Source of the DNA: Candidatus Woesearchaeota archaeon
GTDB lineage: Archaea > Nanobdellota > Nanobdellia > Woesearchaeales > GW2011-AR9
NCBI GenBank assembly: GCA_016185625.1
Contig: JACPND010000007.1
Span: forward strand, 8,262 to 72,261
DNA length: 64,000 nt
Reading direction: 5' to 3'
Below the pieces are notes generated by a model. That model was not told where the DNA came from and did not search any database. It saw nothing but the letters and a program-made list of their open reading frames with translations. Position 1 is the first letter of the stretch. Each line of letters starts with the position of its first letter. The translations under genes were made by a program, and so were the position numbers. Shown piece after piece: positions 2,248 through 58,753 of the stretch.

Positions 2248-2367
2248 TTTTATACTCTAATATGGCACCGAGAAGGCACGATGGCTCTTATGAGTCCTAA
2301 AAGCGCGTGAACTCGGACTGTTATCTACCTAAAAACAGGGGTTCATTTATAAAGATTACGTTTTTGA

Positions 2368-2531
2368 GTAATACTTCAGCATCCTGAAGTGAAGCGTTAC
2401 CGTCTTCTCGCCTCTGGATGTTTTTATCGAGGACAGACATCTCCGTAAGAGACAACCCTCTGTCTGTTCGCAGTAAATGTTGAAGAGGCTCGACCTGATG
2501 ACGGTAACGCTTCATATTGCTGAAGTATTAC
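2368..2531. mobile_element. MITE-like palindromic element, family 1, copy 1 (12-bp TIR GTAATACTTCAG / CTGAAGTATTAC)
   Basis: Perfect 12-bp terminal inverted repeats; internal 14-bp stem GAAGCGTTACCGTC / GACGGTAACGCTTC; flanked by the 8-bp gtttttga. Confidence 0.75.
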
Positions 2532-2539
2532 GTTTTTGA

Positions 2540-2706
2540 GTAATACTTCAGCTTCTTGAAGTTAGAAGCTCTGCTATCTTCTCGCTTTTGACGTGTTTCT
2601 CGATAACTGACATTTCCCTGATGGAGCATCCCCTTTGTCAGTTCGCAGTAAACCATGAAAAAGCTCAACCTGAGGATAGCAGAGCTTCAGAAAGCTGAGG
2701 TATTAC
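2540..2706. mobile_element. MITE-like palindromic element, family 1, copy 2 (tandem with copy 1)
   Basis: Same TIRs (one end reads CTGAGGTATTAC); internal 14-bp stem GAAGCTCTGCTATC / GATAGCAGAGCTTC; the 8-bp gtttttga lies on both sides. Confidence 0.75.
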
Positions 2707-2742
2707 GTTTTTGAATTTTTTGGCAGTTGTATCTCCAATCGT

Positions 2743-5412: not shown

Positions 5413-6852
5413 CTACTCTTCAGAAACCGGAAGGGAAATAAGATTCTCCGGAGAAGAAGCAGCCCTTGTCGTCTCTTCTTTTTTCTCTTCCTCTCTCATC
5501 TCTTCTTCTTTTTTCTGTCTTCTTCTCTTTTTTTTCTCTTCCTCATCAGACTTTTCTTCCCGATGCCGGCGCCATTTTAAAATCGTATAATTCGCCGGAT
5601 TCTTGATCCGTGAACAGAAGGAATCCGGCCGGCAGACGCCTATACCTTTGTAATATGCCTCATTATTACAATTTGGCGGCAAGCGTTCTCCGGCGGTAAA
5701 ATGGGCCAATTGTCCTTTGATATATACTTCCCGCAGCGGCTCCCTGTTTTTCTCTGCATTCCACTTCCGCAAAAATTCTTCAATCTCTGTTTTGCTCCAA
5801 CCCACCTTTCCTAAGAAATTGGCCATGCAGAATACGGCCCGCTTCTTGCCATCGTCCAGGCCCTGCAAGATTAATTTCATGCACGGCGGAAAGAAATCTT
5901 CCGTAATCGGGCTTTGGATGACCATTTCCTCTGCCTGTCTTTTCGGGACATCTTCCGGTGGCACTTTTATTTCATAATCCATGGCCTGCACTAACAGGCG
6001 GCGGGCGCTTTCATTAAGGATATTCCGTTCGAGAAAGACAAACATCGGCGTAAGTATCTTCTCCGGCGCGGCCATACTCTTTTCAAATTCGAGTACGCGA
6101 TCCGGATCGATGGGCAGGCTCACCAATCCTGATTTCTCATGCAGGCTATAGGGCATGCGGTACAGGTGGCGTGATGCCAGCAGGATGGTGTCAATCTCCA
6201 GGAATTTTTCCACATCCAGTTTTGGTACGGAAATTCCCTGTATGGTCTCATATCTGATAATATCTTCCTGCCGGACTTTTTCTTTGATGTTGCTGATATT
6301 TTTTTCAAAAGTTAAGATCTGCCTTCCTAATTCTTCTTTGATATTCTCTTTGATATACAACGCCATTTTTCGCGGCGCCTCGGGAAAAAGATCTTTGGTC
6401 AGAACATTGCCCACTTTCTGCGGAAAGGCTTCAAACGGCACGCCGATATGGAACCCTTTATTTCCGGAATACTTGACCGAAACATCTTTCACTTCGCAAT
6501 ATCTCAGGAACTTGACGATCAAGTCTGCACAGATCCGGCTGTATTCCATCACTGCGCAATCGATGTCCAATACCAAATCCCAGCCGCTGCGCAAGGCATC
6601 TAAATCTTTTTTACTGGAAGTACTGCTTAACGCCAAGGGATTCTGCCAGCGTTCCTCGCTCGCATGAAAGGAAGTGGCGTTTCTCAGCGCCAGTTCGATG
6701 ATGTCTCGGGGATAACTCAGCACATCCGGCCGCTTGCCGAAGGTTTCAGTATATCGCACGCCTACTTCCTTATCGCGGGCATGCTCTACGATTGCGAGCT
6801 GGATATCTGGCCGCTTGTAGAATTTCAGGCAGGTGCTTTTATCGATGGGCAT
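5413..6852 (-). CDS. priS: DNA primase small subunit (AEP fold) fused to a PriL-CTD-like Fe-S domain
   Basis: LVLDIDCAV (DxD motif) and SGNKGFHIGVPF (primase motif); C-terminal FFPPCMKLIL...C...C...C resembles the PPCM Fe-S region of PriL; K/E-rich C-terminal tail. Confidence 0.65.
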   Translation of the reverse strand: MPIDKSTCLKFYKRPDIQLAIVEHARDKEVGVRYTETFGKRPDVLSYPRDIIELALRNATSFHASEERWQNPLALSSTSSKKDLDALRSGWDLVLDIDCAVMEYSRICADLIVKFLRYCEVKDVSVKYSGNKGFHIGVPFEAFPQKVGNVLTKDLFPEAPRKMALYIKENIKEELGRQILTFEKNISNIKEKVRQEDIIRYETIQGISVPKLDVEKFLEIDTILLASRHLYRMPYSLHEKSGLVSLPIDPDRVLEFEKSMAAPEKILTPMFVFLERNILNESARRLLVQAMDYEIKVPPEDVPKRQAEEMVIQSPITEDFFPPCMKLILQGLDDGKKRAVFCMANFLGKVGWSKTEIEEFLRKWNAEKNREPLREVYIKGQLAHFTAGERLPPNCNNEAYYKGIGVCRPDSFCSRIKNPANYTILKWRRHREEKSDEEEKKKRRRQKKEEEMREEEKKEETTRAASSPENLISLPVSEE

Positions 6853-21445: not shown

Positions 21446-21460
21446 GTAATACACCCAACA

Positions 21461-21626
21461 GTAATACTTCAGTATCCTGAAGTGAAGCACCACCATCTTC
21501 TCGCCTTCGATAGGGGAATTGAAAGCTGCCGTTCCCCGGAGGGGGCAATTCCCCCTTGGCAGCAAGATGTTACTCTTGTAAAGGCTCGACCAAGGATGGT
21601 GGTGCTTCACATTATTGAAGTATTAC
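21461..21626. mobile_element. MITE-like palindromic element, family 1, copy 3
   Basis: Same 12-bp TIRs; internal 14-bp stem GAAGCACCACCATC/GATGGTGGTGCTTC; 8-bp TSD acccaaca/gcccaaca. Confidence 0.75.
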
Positions 21627-21677
21627 GCCCAACAACAACCTTTATAAACAAAAAATAAAACCCTCCTCTGTTTCACC

Positions 21678-24600
21678 ATGACCAAAATAAACCGCCTTTC
21701 CATCCACGGATTTAAGAGCTTTGCCAACAAGACGGAGGTCTATTTTGATGATAAATATAACTGCATCCTGGGGCCGAATGGCTCGGGTAAAAGTAATGTC
21801 GGCGATGCGTTGTGTTTCGTCCTAGGCCGTTTGTCCGCCAAATCCATGCGGGCAGAGAAATCTTCGCATCTTTTATTTAACGGCGGAAAGAACAAGAAAC
21901 CTGTCTCTACCGGCTACGTGGAGATCGCTTTTGATAATACCCAGAAGATTTTTCCTATTTCAGAGAAAGAAGTGGTGGTGAATAGAACTATCACCAAGGA
22001 CGGCAACAGCATTTATCGCTTAAACGGGAAGAAACTTACCCGGCAGGAAGTGCTGGATGTGCTGGCCGCGGCCAAGATCAATCCCAACGGCTACAATATC
22101 ATTCTTCAGGGCGACATTACCCATTTTGTCGACATGCCCACCGTGGAGCGAAGAAAGATTATCGAAGAAATCAGCGACGTTTCAGTTTACGAAGAAAAGA
22201 AACATAAAGCGTTATTAGAATTGCAGAAAGTGGAAGAGCAGCTGAACTCTGCAGAAATAATTCTTAAAGAGAGGAAAACACATCTGAAAGAACTCAAGAA
22301 AGACCGTGATCAGGCGCTGGAATTTAAGGAATTAAAAGGGAAAATTGATTCCTCCAAAGCGACCTTCCTCCATCTCCAGATTCAGGAACTGGAGCAGAAG
22401 AAACAGAAAATCGAAGAGGAGATCAAGAAACATCAGGAAAAGATGGGTTCGACGGAAAAGAAAATTGTCGAGTTTAAATCGCAGATTCAGGCGAAAAAAG
22501 ACCAGATCACCAAAATCAATCAGGAGATTGAGCAGAAAGGAGAGAAGGAGCAGGTGCGCGTACATAAAGACATTGAAGATCTGAAAGTGGGGCTGGCGAG
22601 AGACAAGACCCGGATGAGCACGATTAAAGATGAAATCACCAAAGTCCAGCAGCGGAAAGATCAGTTCCGGCAGGAAATCCGCGAGTTAGAAGACAAAGCC
22701 TCGGCCAACAGCCAGCAGTTGAAAGAAGCGCAGCAGGCGATCAAAGCCAAGCAGCGGGAACAGCAGGACGTCGAGCAGAAAATTACGGAATTCAAGAAAA
22801 AGAACAAGATAGAGGCTTCGCAGGACTTAGACCAGGAAATTGAAGAGAAGGACAAGCTCATCGAGAAAAAGCAGGAAGAGATCCAGCAACTGCGGCAGAA
22901 ACAGCAGGAATCCCTGCGCGAGAAGGACAAGCTGGAATTTCAGGTCCAGACGATCGATGAGAAAATACGGAAAGTCAAGGAAGTCGAGCAGGAGAACAAG
23001 CAGCAGGTGAAAGAGCTGCAGAACATGAAGAATGAGTTTAAGACCGCGACGCTGCGCTTGAACCAATGCTTGGATCAGGATTCCGGCTTCTCGGCGCAAT
23101 TAGGGAATGCCCGGAAAAAGTTAGTCGATTTGCAGGAGCAGAAAGCCAAAGCCGATGCGAAAACGCAATCAGTGTTAGCACACATCGCGGGGAATGAAGC
23201 GTTGAAAGCGCTGGCCAAGAAGAAGATGAAAGGCGTCTTTGGCACGATTGCGGAATTGGGGCAGGTCAATAAAAAATATTCGCTGCCGCTGGAAGTGGCT
23301 GCCGGAAATAAGACCCAGCATGTGGTCGTTGAGGATGATCAAGTTGCGGCAGAGTGCATCAAATTCCTGCAGCAGAATAAATCAGGCACCGCGTCATTCA
23401 TCCCCCTCAATAAAATCAAATATCAGGAAGTGGCTGACGAAGATAAAAAACTGCGTAAGCAGCAGGGTGTGCATGACTTCGCAATCGATCTAATTTCCTT
23501 CAAGCCGCAGTTCAAAAAAGCCTTTGCCCATGTCTTCGGCAACACGCTCGTTGTAGAAAATATTGAAACCGCCCGTAACCTTGGCGTGGGACGCATCAGG
23601 ATGGCCACTATGGATGGGAATCAGATCGAATTTTCCGGCGTGATGAAAGGCGGGTATCTGCAGCGGAGAGCTGCCTCATTTCAGGAGAAAGATGCGCTGG
23701 AAGAAGCGGACAAGATGGAGAAAGAGATTGCCAACTGGCAGGCCGTGGTGCAAAAGGTGGAAGTGCAGCGCGAAGCCAATGAGCGGGAGATTTCACAGTT
23801 ACGATTACGCAAAGGAGAATTGGAAGGGGAGATTATAACTTTAGAGAAGACCCTGCATCTGGGCGGATCGGATTTAGAAGCAAGCGCCGAAGTGAAGAAG
23901 GAATTGCAGGAGCAGCTGAAGAAAATCGATGCCGATCTGGCACTGGTGAATAAGGACATCACGGCACTGAACAAGGAGTTGGCAGACCTGAAAACAAAGA
24001 AACAGGCGTTGCGCGACCAGATCACGGAATTACGCAATCCGCGGTTATTGGCGCAGCTGACCGCCTTTGAGGAATTGAAGCACAACCTGCGGGAAGAGAT
24101 GCTGCATCTGGAGAATCAATTGAAGAACAGCCATTTGCAGGTGGAACAATTAATCAATCCGGAATTGGAAAAGATAAAAGAGATTATCAAACAGCATGAT
24201 AAGGAAGAAGCGCAATTTTCTGAAGAATTGCGAGCGCTATCCGGCACGGTAAAAGAGCGGGAGAAAGATCTGGAGAAGAAAGAGAAAGAAAGCAAGGACT
24301 TCTATGCGCAATATAAAGAATTATTCAATGTGCGGGAGAAATTATCTTCCGAGATTTCCAGGCAGGAAAATGATGTTGAGGGCATCCGTGAAAAATCAAG
24401 GGATGCAGAACGGGAAGTCAACATGGTCTCGCTGGAGAACGCAGAATTGAAAGCAAAAGTGGCGGGCTTGCAGGAAGAATTTAACCGCTATAAAGACGTG
24501 CCGCTTCTTAAAGAGAAGAAAGCTGATGAATTGAAGCAGGAGATGGCCAAGTTTGAAGTGATGCTCTCGCAGATGTCGGCAGTGAACATGAAAGCGCTGG

Positions 24601-28982: not shown

Positions 28983-29069
28983 AGCCCCTGGGGAGATTTG
29001 AACTCCCGACCTCGTCCTTTCTGTTTGAACGATACCAAGGACGCGCTCTAGCCACTAAGCCACAGGGGC
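28983..29069 (-). tRNA. tRNA-Thr (anticodon GGU) with a 14-nt intron at position 37/38
   Basis: Manual fold: acceptor GCCCCUG/CAGGGGC, T-arm GGGAG-UUCAAAU-CUCCC, anticodon stem CGUCC/GGACG, loop UUGGUA[intron UCGUUCAAACAGAA]A, discriminator U. Confidence 0.7.
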
Positions 29070-33532: not shown

Positions 33533-33610
33533 TCACTTACTATGTTTCGCTTCACTTCAGGATGCTGAAGAATCTTTGCACTGATTAGTTGAATTTTTAG
33601 GCATGATGTT

Positions 33611-58172: not shown

Positions 58173-58448
58173 TTATAAAGATTTGGGAGAACTTTTAATC
58201 TTGTGGGTGACTGATTTAAGCTCAGGAATCTTATGTTGAAGAATATCCCAGAGTATCGCTGTATTAAAGGTAAAGTATCCATGAATGAGAATGTCGTGCA
58301 GACCAGCAATCTTCTTCCACTCAACTTCGGATAGAAGCTGGTTTTTAAAAATCTTTGTAAAGAAAAGTTGATATTTGTTTAGCATCTTCAAAATTCTCGA
58401 CGTGATAATCACAGAGCGACATCTCCGTAGGAGCCATCCTTCTGTCAC
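58173..58448 (-). pseudogene. HepT/DUF86-like (HEPN) fragment
   Basis: AGLHDILIHGYFTFNTAILWDI resembles the DUF86 motif R-x4-HxY...W, with the Arg replaced. The N-terminal half is absent, and a short unrelated ORF lies upstream. Confidence 0.3.
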
Positions 58449-58753
58449 TCTTGTTGAGATTATCGAAAGAATTTTGACCTTATGATGCTAAATAAATACA
58501 AAAGTTGTTATTCTACTTTAACTGTGGCAGGCAGGCTAGGTTTTAGTGCTTTAAATGGACTGGTTACAGTTTGGTATAATGATGTCCAGATACTCTTCTT
58601 TGCTTTTGGCGGCCAAATCATATTTACTATATCCTAACTTCTGATACGCATACTCCGTTACCTGTTCAAATCCTTTCCAGAGGGTTGAATCAAGTTGGAG
58701 TAAAAGATCGTCTAATCCCATAGACGCTTAGGTTTGGACTTTTTTTATAAATT

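Follow-up and report, generated by a model that had tools for sequence, protein, structure and literature searches.

IS66-related MITEs in DPANN archaea: co-varying palindromic arms and an apparent fixed distance to core promoters

How can a family of short repeats have arms that differ from copy to copy and nevertheless pair within each copy, and is this pairing held at the level of DNA or of RNA? The question is raised by a 64,000-nt stretch of the chromosome of a Candidatus Woesearchaeota archaeon (contig JACPND010000007.1), which is called the window here. It contains four elements, named A, B, C and D by their order along the window, of which A, B and C are nested palindromes of ~165 bp. 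A first-pass annotation had placed these three copies and their common termini correctly. It had read them as a functional RNA (or single-stranded DNA) structure and had raised a transposon only as a possible refutation of this; it had overlooked that each copy lies between 8-bp direct repeats, and also the fourth copy at 58371–58499. To judge by their sequence, the elements are in fact MITEs (miniature inverted-repeat transposable elements) that have 8-bp duplications and an identifiable parent of the IS66 family. Our joint reading, which we hold to be reasonably probable, is that these IS66-derived MITEs insert at the edge of promoters and that their arms are kept paired as DNA for mobilisation, and not for a function as RNA.

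The terminal 12-mer GTAATACTTCAG occurred seven times in the window when up to one mismatch was allowed (0.23 expected), and six of the seven occurrences were ends of A, B and C. One mismatch to this 12-mer is present in the right end of B (CTGAGGTATTAC) and one in that of C (TTGAAGTATTAC). Terminal inverted repeats of the type GTAATACTTCAG/CTGAAGTATTAC were present in A, B, C and every related copy. A and B are arranged in tandem with the target-site duplication (TSD) GTTTTTGA three times between 2360 and 2714, in the order TSD–A–TSD–B–TSD. Copy A is overlapped only by an unconserved open reading frame (ORF) of 64 aa. Across all copies, the MITEs measured 129–320 bp and none encoded a transposase.

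Relatives were collected with a left-end pattern in one genome per species, which gave 13 loci, nearly all in assemblies of Woesearchaeota or other DPANN archaea, and with a metagenome scan in which the pattern fixed the 5' arm and 5' loop only and left the 3' arm free, which gave 40 further loci (loci are given L numbers below). These scans, nhmmer and a covariance model together yielded 30 unique complete copies. Nearly all of them were surrounded by 8-bp direct repeats with 0–1 mismatch, the sequence of which differed by site. When the D-type copies and other relatives were added, such repeats were found at 28 of 34 tabulated insertion sites; the remaining six sites, which lacked matching repeats, were mostly assembly chimeras or old copies. 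Several metagenome contigs (L040, L041, L057–L063, L070–L078) were chimeric, with the left flank of one copy joined to the right flank of another, and analyses based on flanks must allow for such contigs and their mismatched duplications. Pattern matches in L023, L033, L035 and L038 were due to chance, as they lay within unrelated GC-rich or coding DNA; the match in L010 (Metabacillus), one end-like sequence with neither partner nor transposase, was likewise treated as chance. In viral contigs, one scan each for the element ends and the core gave no match.

The same termini were found around a transposase gene. At L005 (2560–4152), MITE-type termini enclose 1593 bp with a 453-aa ORF that matched Pfam DDE_Tnp_IS66 (PF03050; 1.4e-26) and NCBIfam transpos_IS66 (NF033517; 206 bits, cutoff 180), and L003, L004 and L007 carry the same element, cut off. 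This transposase had 988 homologues at E<=1e-30, several of which come from Woesearchaeota or Nanoarchaeota and bear the name IS66 family transposase. The contigs of three homologues contained full-length elements of 1575–1591 bp, the ends of which were GTAATACTTCAC...CTGAAGTGTTAC, GTAATACTTTAG...CTAAAGTATTAC and GTAATACTTCAC...CTGAAGTACTAC. The full-length elements (L005, L054–L079; 1575–1593 bp) have ends of the form GTAATACTT(C/T)A(G/C). They consist of one large transposase ORF (~450 aa) and an upstream ORF of 45–46 aa with a weak DUF2080 match, the end of which overlaps the transposase start codon in L057–L062 and L064–L079. The parent element is too short for the classical three-gene layout of IS66. 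Insertion sequence (IS) and MITE copies co-occur in the JGI groundwater metagenome 3300025317.

No IS66-type transposase was detected by tblastn in the 64-kb window. The copies in the window are therefore non-autonomous, and their mobilisation must occur in trans. Since the same termini surround an IS66-family transposase in related assemblies, we conclude on these sequence grounds that the elements are MITEs of an ISBst12-type IS66-family element in DPANN archaea. ISDge4 of Deinococcus geothermalis, a published element of the ISBst12 group, has GTAACTGCTCAGCA as its ends, encodes a transposase of 449 aa and shows a direct repeat of 8 bp (PMC12898284). The archaeal parent elements resemble this group in their GTAA-starting ends similar to GTAACTGCTCAGCA, the 8-bp repeat, the one large DDE transposase of ~450 aa and the length of ~1.6 kb. 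They differ from it by the extra 45–46-aa ORF, and the window itself holds non-coding derivatives only; the family was assigned on relatives outside it. A palindromic element of the IS200/IS605 type (PATE/REP) was excluded by the 8-bp duplications, the terminal inverted repeats and the DDE transposase of the IS66 family. An integron attC site was excluded as well: the elements lie between ordinary genes (rpS13, SMC), carry duplications and form a tandem without a cassette. As a repeat family, the elements belong to a known kind, the MITEs, and in a published census the MITE density of a woesearchaeal genome was among the highest in archaea (PMC11602168). In the literature on archaeal IS66 MITEs and on the IS66 mechanism we found no direct precedent.

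To characterize the target sites, the flanks of independent insertions were aligned and the starts of TATA-like hexamers were scored 0–24 nt beyond the duplication. These flanks were unselected because the search patterns lay inside the element. TATA-like hexamers started only 6–8 nt past the outer edge of the duplication and not at 0–5 or 9–24 nt. This spacing was observed at 20 of 27 independent MITE sites, whereas of random 8-mers drawn from the non-ORF parts of these loci 4.3% showed it (p=3.5e-22). The TATA box reads away from the element. It was found on the right side at 12 sites and on the left side at 10 (both sides in L001), and the orientation of the elements relative to the adjacent promoter is thus unbiased. 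The 6-nt spacer resembled the transcription factor B recognition element (BRE) of archaeal promoters (GAAACA, GCAACA, AAAACA, ACAACC, GTAATC). In 13 of 21 cases, an outward-pointing ORF began 28–40 nt after the TATA start, as is usual for archaeal promoters whose leaders are very short or absent. The same TATA spacing was seen for the full-length ISs at ~8 of 11 reconstructed sites and, in addition, in the flanks of L005 and L004. In the window, promoter-like motifs with this spacing adjoin the A/B tandem and copy C (Table 1); the ATG of the SMC gene, at 21678, lies 37 nt after the TATA start.

Table 1. Elements, target-site duplications and promoter-like motifs in the window
Feature	Positions	Strand	Sequence and remarks
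TATA box and BRE-like motif beside A/B	2346..2359	-	TATA box TTTATAAA (2346-2353), BRE-like GTAATC (2354-2359); adjoins A/B, towards rpS13 gene (1732-2247, -)
Target-site duplication, first of three identical	2360..2367	.	GTTTTTGA; left of A
MITE copy A	2368..2531	+	164 bp; termini GTAATACTTCAG / CTGAAGTATTAC; stem 2 GAAGCGTTACCGTC/GACGGTAACGCTTC; 185.7 bits (model R1)
Target-site duplication, middle copy	2532..2539	.	GTTTTTGA; A/B junction
MITE copy B	2540..2706	+	167 bp; stem 2 GAAGCTCTGCTATC/GATAGCAGAGCTTC; right terminus CTGAGGTATTAC; 159.3 bits
Target-site duplication, third copy	2707..2714	.	GTTTTTGA; right of B
Left target-site duplication of C	21453..21460	.	ACCCAACA
MITE copy C	21461..21626	+	166 bp; stem 2 GAAGCACCACCATC/GATGGTGGTGCTTC; right terminus TTGAAGTATTAC; 156.6 bits
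Right target-site duplication of C	21627..21634	.	GCCCAACA; one mismatch to left copy
BRE-like motif and TATA box beside C	21635..21648	+	BRE-like ACAACC (21635-21640), TATA box TTTATAAA (21641-21648); SMC promoter-like motif directly downstream of C
Solitary fragment like MITE left end	33548..33573	-	TCTTCAGCATCCTGAAGTGAAGCG; matches left-end positions 4-29; partner end absent nearby
Left target-site duplication of D	58363..58370	.	AAAAGTTG
MITE copy D	58371..58499	+	129 bp; homologous core; termini ATATTTGTTTAGCATC / GATGCTAAATAAATAC; 56.5 bits, E 6e-13
Right target-site duplication of D	58500..58507	.	AAAAGTTG; pair perfect

Tolerance of insertions alone is insufficient to explain this fixed register, since it should extend equally to sites further upstream. 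Insertion is not random: the 8-bp staggered cut is placed such that 6 nt separate the end of the duplication from the TATA box downstream of it, and it thereby falls on the upstream border of the core promoter with its BRE and TATA box. The site might be chosen through the BRE/TATA sequence or through DNA that is bound and bent by the TATA-binding protein (TBP) and transcription factor B (TFB). After such an insertion, the promoter-proximal duplication stays 6 nt from the TATA box and its 8 bp can serve as a target once more, which gives the TSD–A–TSD–B–TSD array. Copy A, on the promoter side of the tandem, would then be the later insertion. The sequences GATTAC upstream of A and GTAATAC upstream of C were considered as remnants of older copies and are better explained as BRE-like promoter spacer. 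Promoter-adjacent insertion may represent a 'safe site' strategy in a gene-dense genome. Our search of the literature on target sites and on promoter-targeted archaeal insertion sequences found no description of such insertion. Insertion in a fixed register at archaeal core promoters, common to the MITEs and their parent ISs, thus appears to be new.

What, then, keeps the arms paired? Folded as RNA, each of the three copies formed one rod: A at -72.8 kcal/mol (z -8.9), B at -69.3 kcal/mol (z -8.1) and C at -81.4 kcal/mol (z -9.1). None of 200 shuffled sequences folded as well; the DNA fold of copy A gave -40.2 kcal/mol (z -8.8). For a MAFFT alignment of 19 copies, RNAalifold returned 46 pairs, and in 16 of these both sides had changed in a compensatory way; 96.8% of cells were paired. 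Shuffled alignments had 9.4±1.7 double-changed pairs (0/500 as high) and alignments with slid partners 3–6. Among 31 distinct copies aligned to the model, 96.9% of cells were paired and double changes affected 17 pairs and 84 cells, compared with 9.9±1.6 pairs after shuffling (0/500) and 2–4 in the slid controls. The compensatory change that the first-pass annotation had noticed between three copies therefore holds on the wider copy set.

The best-supported helix, stem 2, has the form GAAGC-N7-TC, in which GAAGC and TC are constant and seven of the 14 pairs vary (N7 variants include GTTACCG, ACTACCG, GTTATCG, ACCACCA, TCTGCTA and TTTACCA). In the 31 copies it contained 43 double-changed cells, no one-sided change, no G-U cell and four mismatched or non-standard cells. 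The 14-bp stem sequences had been quoted exactly, but nine central positions had been said to differ completely; only seven vary, and A, B and C differ from each other at 4–5 of these, mostly by transitions. The inner stem co-varies as well (CAGAC/GTCTG, CTGAC/GTCAG, CTGCC/GGCAG, CCGAC/GTCGG), as had been described, with two amendments. In copy A it comprises 6 bp (ACAGAC/GTCTGT or CAGACA/TGTCTG), and the 7-mer GTCTGTC given for it is not in the sequence; in copy C, the counterpart of the A and B inner stem is GCTGCC/GGCAGC, which co-varies, whereas the pair GGGGAATTG/CAATTCCCC, although present, is not homologous to that stem. The short helix beside the loop, 4–6 bp long, changes coordinately, in agreement with the earlier description.

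The asymmetric internal loop between the helices is conserved. Its proposed extent was too large, since in the consensus fold UUCUCGC and GGCUC pair with each other through their GC dinucleotides, which leaves a 2x2 UC/UC mismatch and a bulge on the 3' side. Such asymmetric internal loops and bulges were kept across copies from many assemblies. A structural switch had also been suggested for the 5' terminus; the left-end hairpin ACTTCAG-N4-CTGAAGT is present but is inherited from the parent, which has the small palindrome CTTCAG-N4-CTGAAG at both ends. The two ends of the parent IS are alike over the outer ~23 bp only, whereas the MITEs pair over their full length. As the inverted repeats of the parent cover only these ~23 bp, the inner MITE stems are not inherited terminal repeats. 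On the evidence of the alignments, pairing in the MITEs extends beyond what recognition by a transposase should need, as had been proposed.

We also asked whether the pairing is maintained after insertion. In clusters of near-identical copies, 19 variant events fell in 129 paired columns and 26 in 128 unpaired columns, and single uncompensated stem changes persist in L016, L044 and L049. These few events suggest that inserted copies decay neutrally. If so, the constraint would act on lineages that are still transposing. Such lineages may need their two arms to fold back on each other at the DNA level, in a cruciform or in a hairpin of single-stranded DNA; the helices do keep strict Watson–Crick pairing as their sequence drifts. 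The element measures only about one DNA persistence length, and folding back may bring its two ends together.

Relatives with other ends bear on the origin of the helices. Copy D has well-paired helices again, with sequences different from those of A–C, and D-like copies were also found in L008 and L047. The D-type termini (GTATTTATTTAGCATC type, ends GTATTTGTTTAGCATC) coincide exactly in position with A-type stem 2, and both types have the junction ...(A/G)TC|TTC in common. A second IS66-type element (L076 700–979 and L078 1–269) has the end GTATGTATTAAGCTCTTCTCG... (GTATGTATTAAGC), which includes TCTTCTCG, the conserved 5' internal loop motif of the A-type MITEs. On one contig, L049, an element of 163 bp (5498–5660) is bounded by ISL3-like ends, GGCTCTGTAGAAA / TTTCTACGGAGCC, with the 8-bp sequence GTTATTAC perfectly duplicated around it, and its interior has sequence in common with the IS66-type (A-type) MITE on the same contig. 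By these comparisons, the core rod seems to have been reused under at least three kinds of termini.

Several explanations of the matching arms have to be weighed. The coincidence of D-type ends with stem 2, the common junction, the loop motif inside the second IS66-type end and the cores common to the A and D types would all suit an origin of the inner stems as relic or alternative terminal repeats. A D-type MITE would later have been given outer ends of another IS66 lineage, and its arms would match since both once had to bind the same transposase. One protein binding both ends does not, however, predict compensatory drift. Three different stem-2 sequences lie within one 64-kb window, all seven variable positions are matched on the other arm and the deeper helices co-vary too, so that we regard this origin as very improbable indeed. 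Possible, if unlikely, is a neutral correction of palindromes at the DNA level, in which each arm would serve as the template for repair of mismatches in the other, through intra-strand template switching at replication (quasi-palindrome correction) or through processing of hairpin mismatches. A mutation would be reverted or copied to the other arm, which would produce covariation of Watson–Crick type only and would do so without selection for structure. Template-switch mutagenesis at quasi-palindromes is well established in bacteria, and both the lack of any G-U intermediate among the Watson–Crick alternatives of the main stem and the absence of orientation bias agree with it. Yet such correction should also erase the asymmetric loops and bulges, which are conserved across many assemblies, and the uncompensated changes in near-identical copies show that inserted elements are not corrected efficiently. 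A distance of ~100 nt, moreover, separates the two arms of stem 2.

The functional RNA proposed by the first-pass annotation would be a structured transcript, or would act in cis within an RNA (for example as a stabiliser, a terminator or a site of processing), and it would be carried by the MITE and selected at the RNA level. Covariation around conserved unpaired nucleotides is what one would expect of it, and a homologous core under three kinds of termini might suit useful cargo. There is also a precedent in bcr1 of the Bacillus cereus group, a dispersed MITE-like element of ~155 bp with direct-repeat flanks, an extended fold and compensatory changes that is reported to be transcribed (PMC3184786). 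At the gathering threshold, however, an Rfam scan (Rfam 15) of the whole window, a check that had been recommended at the outset, matched only a tRNA and nothing at the elements, and permissive scans (E<=10) over the elements returned only sub-threshold noise of miRNA, CRISPR-repeat and snoRNA type. A k-turn or C/D-box at the 3' loop (CUGAUGA in copy A) was considered and rejected, as the motif is not conserved in B, C and others. The elements showed no orientation bias relative to flanking ORFs. Their orientation was random relative to the adjacent promoter as well, which in any case points away from the element, and no internal promoter or terminator was identified. The best-supported stem lacks G-U pairs; in the supported helices of the 19 copies (helices 1–3 and the inner stem), G-U occupied six cells and A-C/C-A seven. 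G-U is thus no commoner than A-C, which is not the pattern of an RNA that tolerates wobble on one strand. Rfam gave no match, orientation was unbiased, the main stem had no G-U and inserted copies appear to decay neutrally. These results do not support a functional RNA, which we consider quite improbable.

Some observations do weigh against pairing as DNA for mobilisation at promoter edges, or limit it. The + strand RNA fold was more stable than the - strand fold in 22 of 28 copies (by 4.7 kcal/mol on average), and the apical helix (helix 6) is rich in G-U on the + strand; both would suit the RNA interpretation and leave some, if weak, room for a strand-specific role. We gave these two results little weight because the copies are related to each other. 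A simple pairing requirement also does not explain the conserved asymmetric loops. The TATA spacing was absent at seven of the 27 MITE sites, and no TATA box adjoined the two D-type copies (D in the window and its relative in L008). Among all gathered loci, empty (uninserted) alleles numbered zero, three matches being artefacts of end-like sequences, and mobility is deduced solely from the duplications and the varied flanks. To our knowledge, there is no citable precedent for a DDE transposase that requires fold-back DNA, and the mechanism of IS66-family transposition is poorly characterised (PMC12898284). Taken together, we still favour DNA-level pairing for mobilisation, at the strength given above. 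A bolder form of this proposal, in which the archaeal IS66 transposase reads the core promoter (as BRE/TATA sequence or as DNA bound and bent by TBP/TFB) and inserts in a fixed register right before the BRE, and the DNA cruciform or hairpin is the form in which the very short MITEs are mobilised, favoured by negative supercoiling upstream of active promoters, we judge to be unlikely.

Known systems offer partial parallels. Hairpin-forming bacterial MITEs such as Correia/NEMIS, ERIC and RUP are small and intergenic, with terminal inverted repeats and long hairpins (reviewed in PMC3184786). They belong to other IS families, have other target duplications and pair mainly between their terminal repeats, whereas the archaeal elements have several internal helices that co-vary around conserved loops. 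Integron attC sites conserve structure and unpaired bases while their sequence varies, and they are read as folded single-stranded DNA; they are served by a tyrosine recombinase at cassette boundaries, with neither a target duplication nor a DDE transposase. The archaeal MITEs, in contrast, have 8-bp duplications and an IS66-type transposase. With respect to targeting, Ty3 and Ty1 of yeast and Tf1 of fission yeast insert at a defined distance from promoter elements, which spares genes and constitutes a safe-site strategy in a compact genome. These are eukaryotic long terminal repeat retroelements tethered through contacts between integrase and host factors; here, a prokaryotic DDE transposon, not known to be tethered by any factor, lies beside the archaeal BRE/TATA motif. 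For compensatory change in a MITE-like element, the closest precedent is bcr1, which is bacterial, has 5-bp repeats and is read as a structure at the RNA level (PMC3184786). Neither a parent IS nor promoter targeting of bcr1 is described in that review (PMC3184786).

DPANN archaea have tiny, gene-dense genomes, and a rule that places each insertion immediately outside the core promoter would account for the many transposons that these genomes tolerate. The insertion rule would also offer a means of marking promoters in uncultured archaea by sequence only. If TBP/TFB were involved, the transposon would be targeted through the archaeal transcription machinery, for which we found no precedent in the literature; if true, the targeting of archaeal IS66 would be a prokaryotic counterpart of promoter-tethered integration in yeast. 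The co-varying rod, in turn, would provide a clean, testable case for distinguishing pairing at the DNA level from pairing at the RNA level in MITEs.

A few copies had unusual interiors. Longer variants were found in L016, L026, L044 and L051 (265–266 bp), L001 (4783–5102, 320 bp) and L013 (5815–6040, 226 bp). One class of them has an insertion of ~100 nt in the apical loop that is common to several copies, and L001 has an additional insertion of ~55 nt that forms two hairpins within stem 2. In L049, a copy of 302 bp (2637–2938, - strand) contains five tandem 20-mers GATTAGGCTCAACCAGAGAT with the conserved 3'-side loop motif, an array that may have arisen by replication slippage or may be an amplified binding site.

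The genes of the window include those for ribosomal protein S13, a fused PriS-PriL primase, SMC and a Ser/Thr kinase. The primase assignment is suggested by a single 479-aa ORF (5413–6852, - strand) that matched the families of both the small and the large primase subunit. The tRNA detected by Rfam (57.6 bits) lies at 28983–29069 (- strand) and is 87 nt long; its anticodon was not assignable by ARAGORN, and it may be an intron-containing archaeal tRNA.

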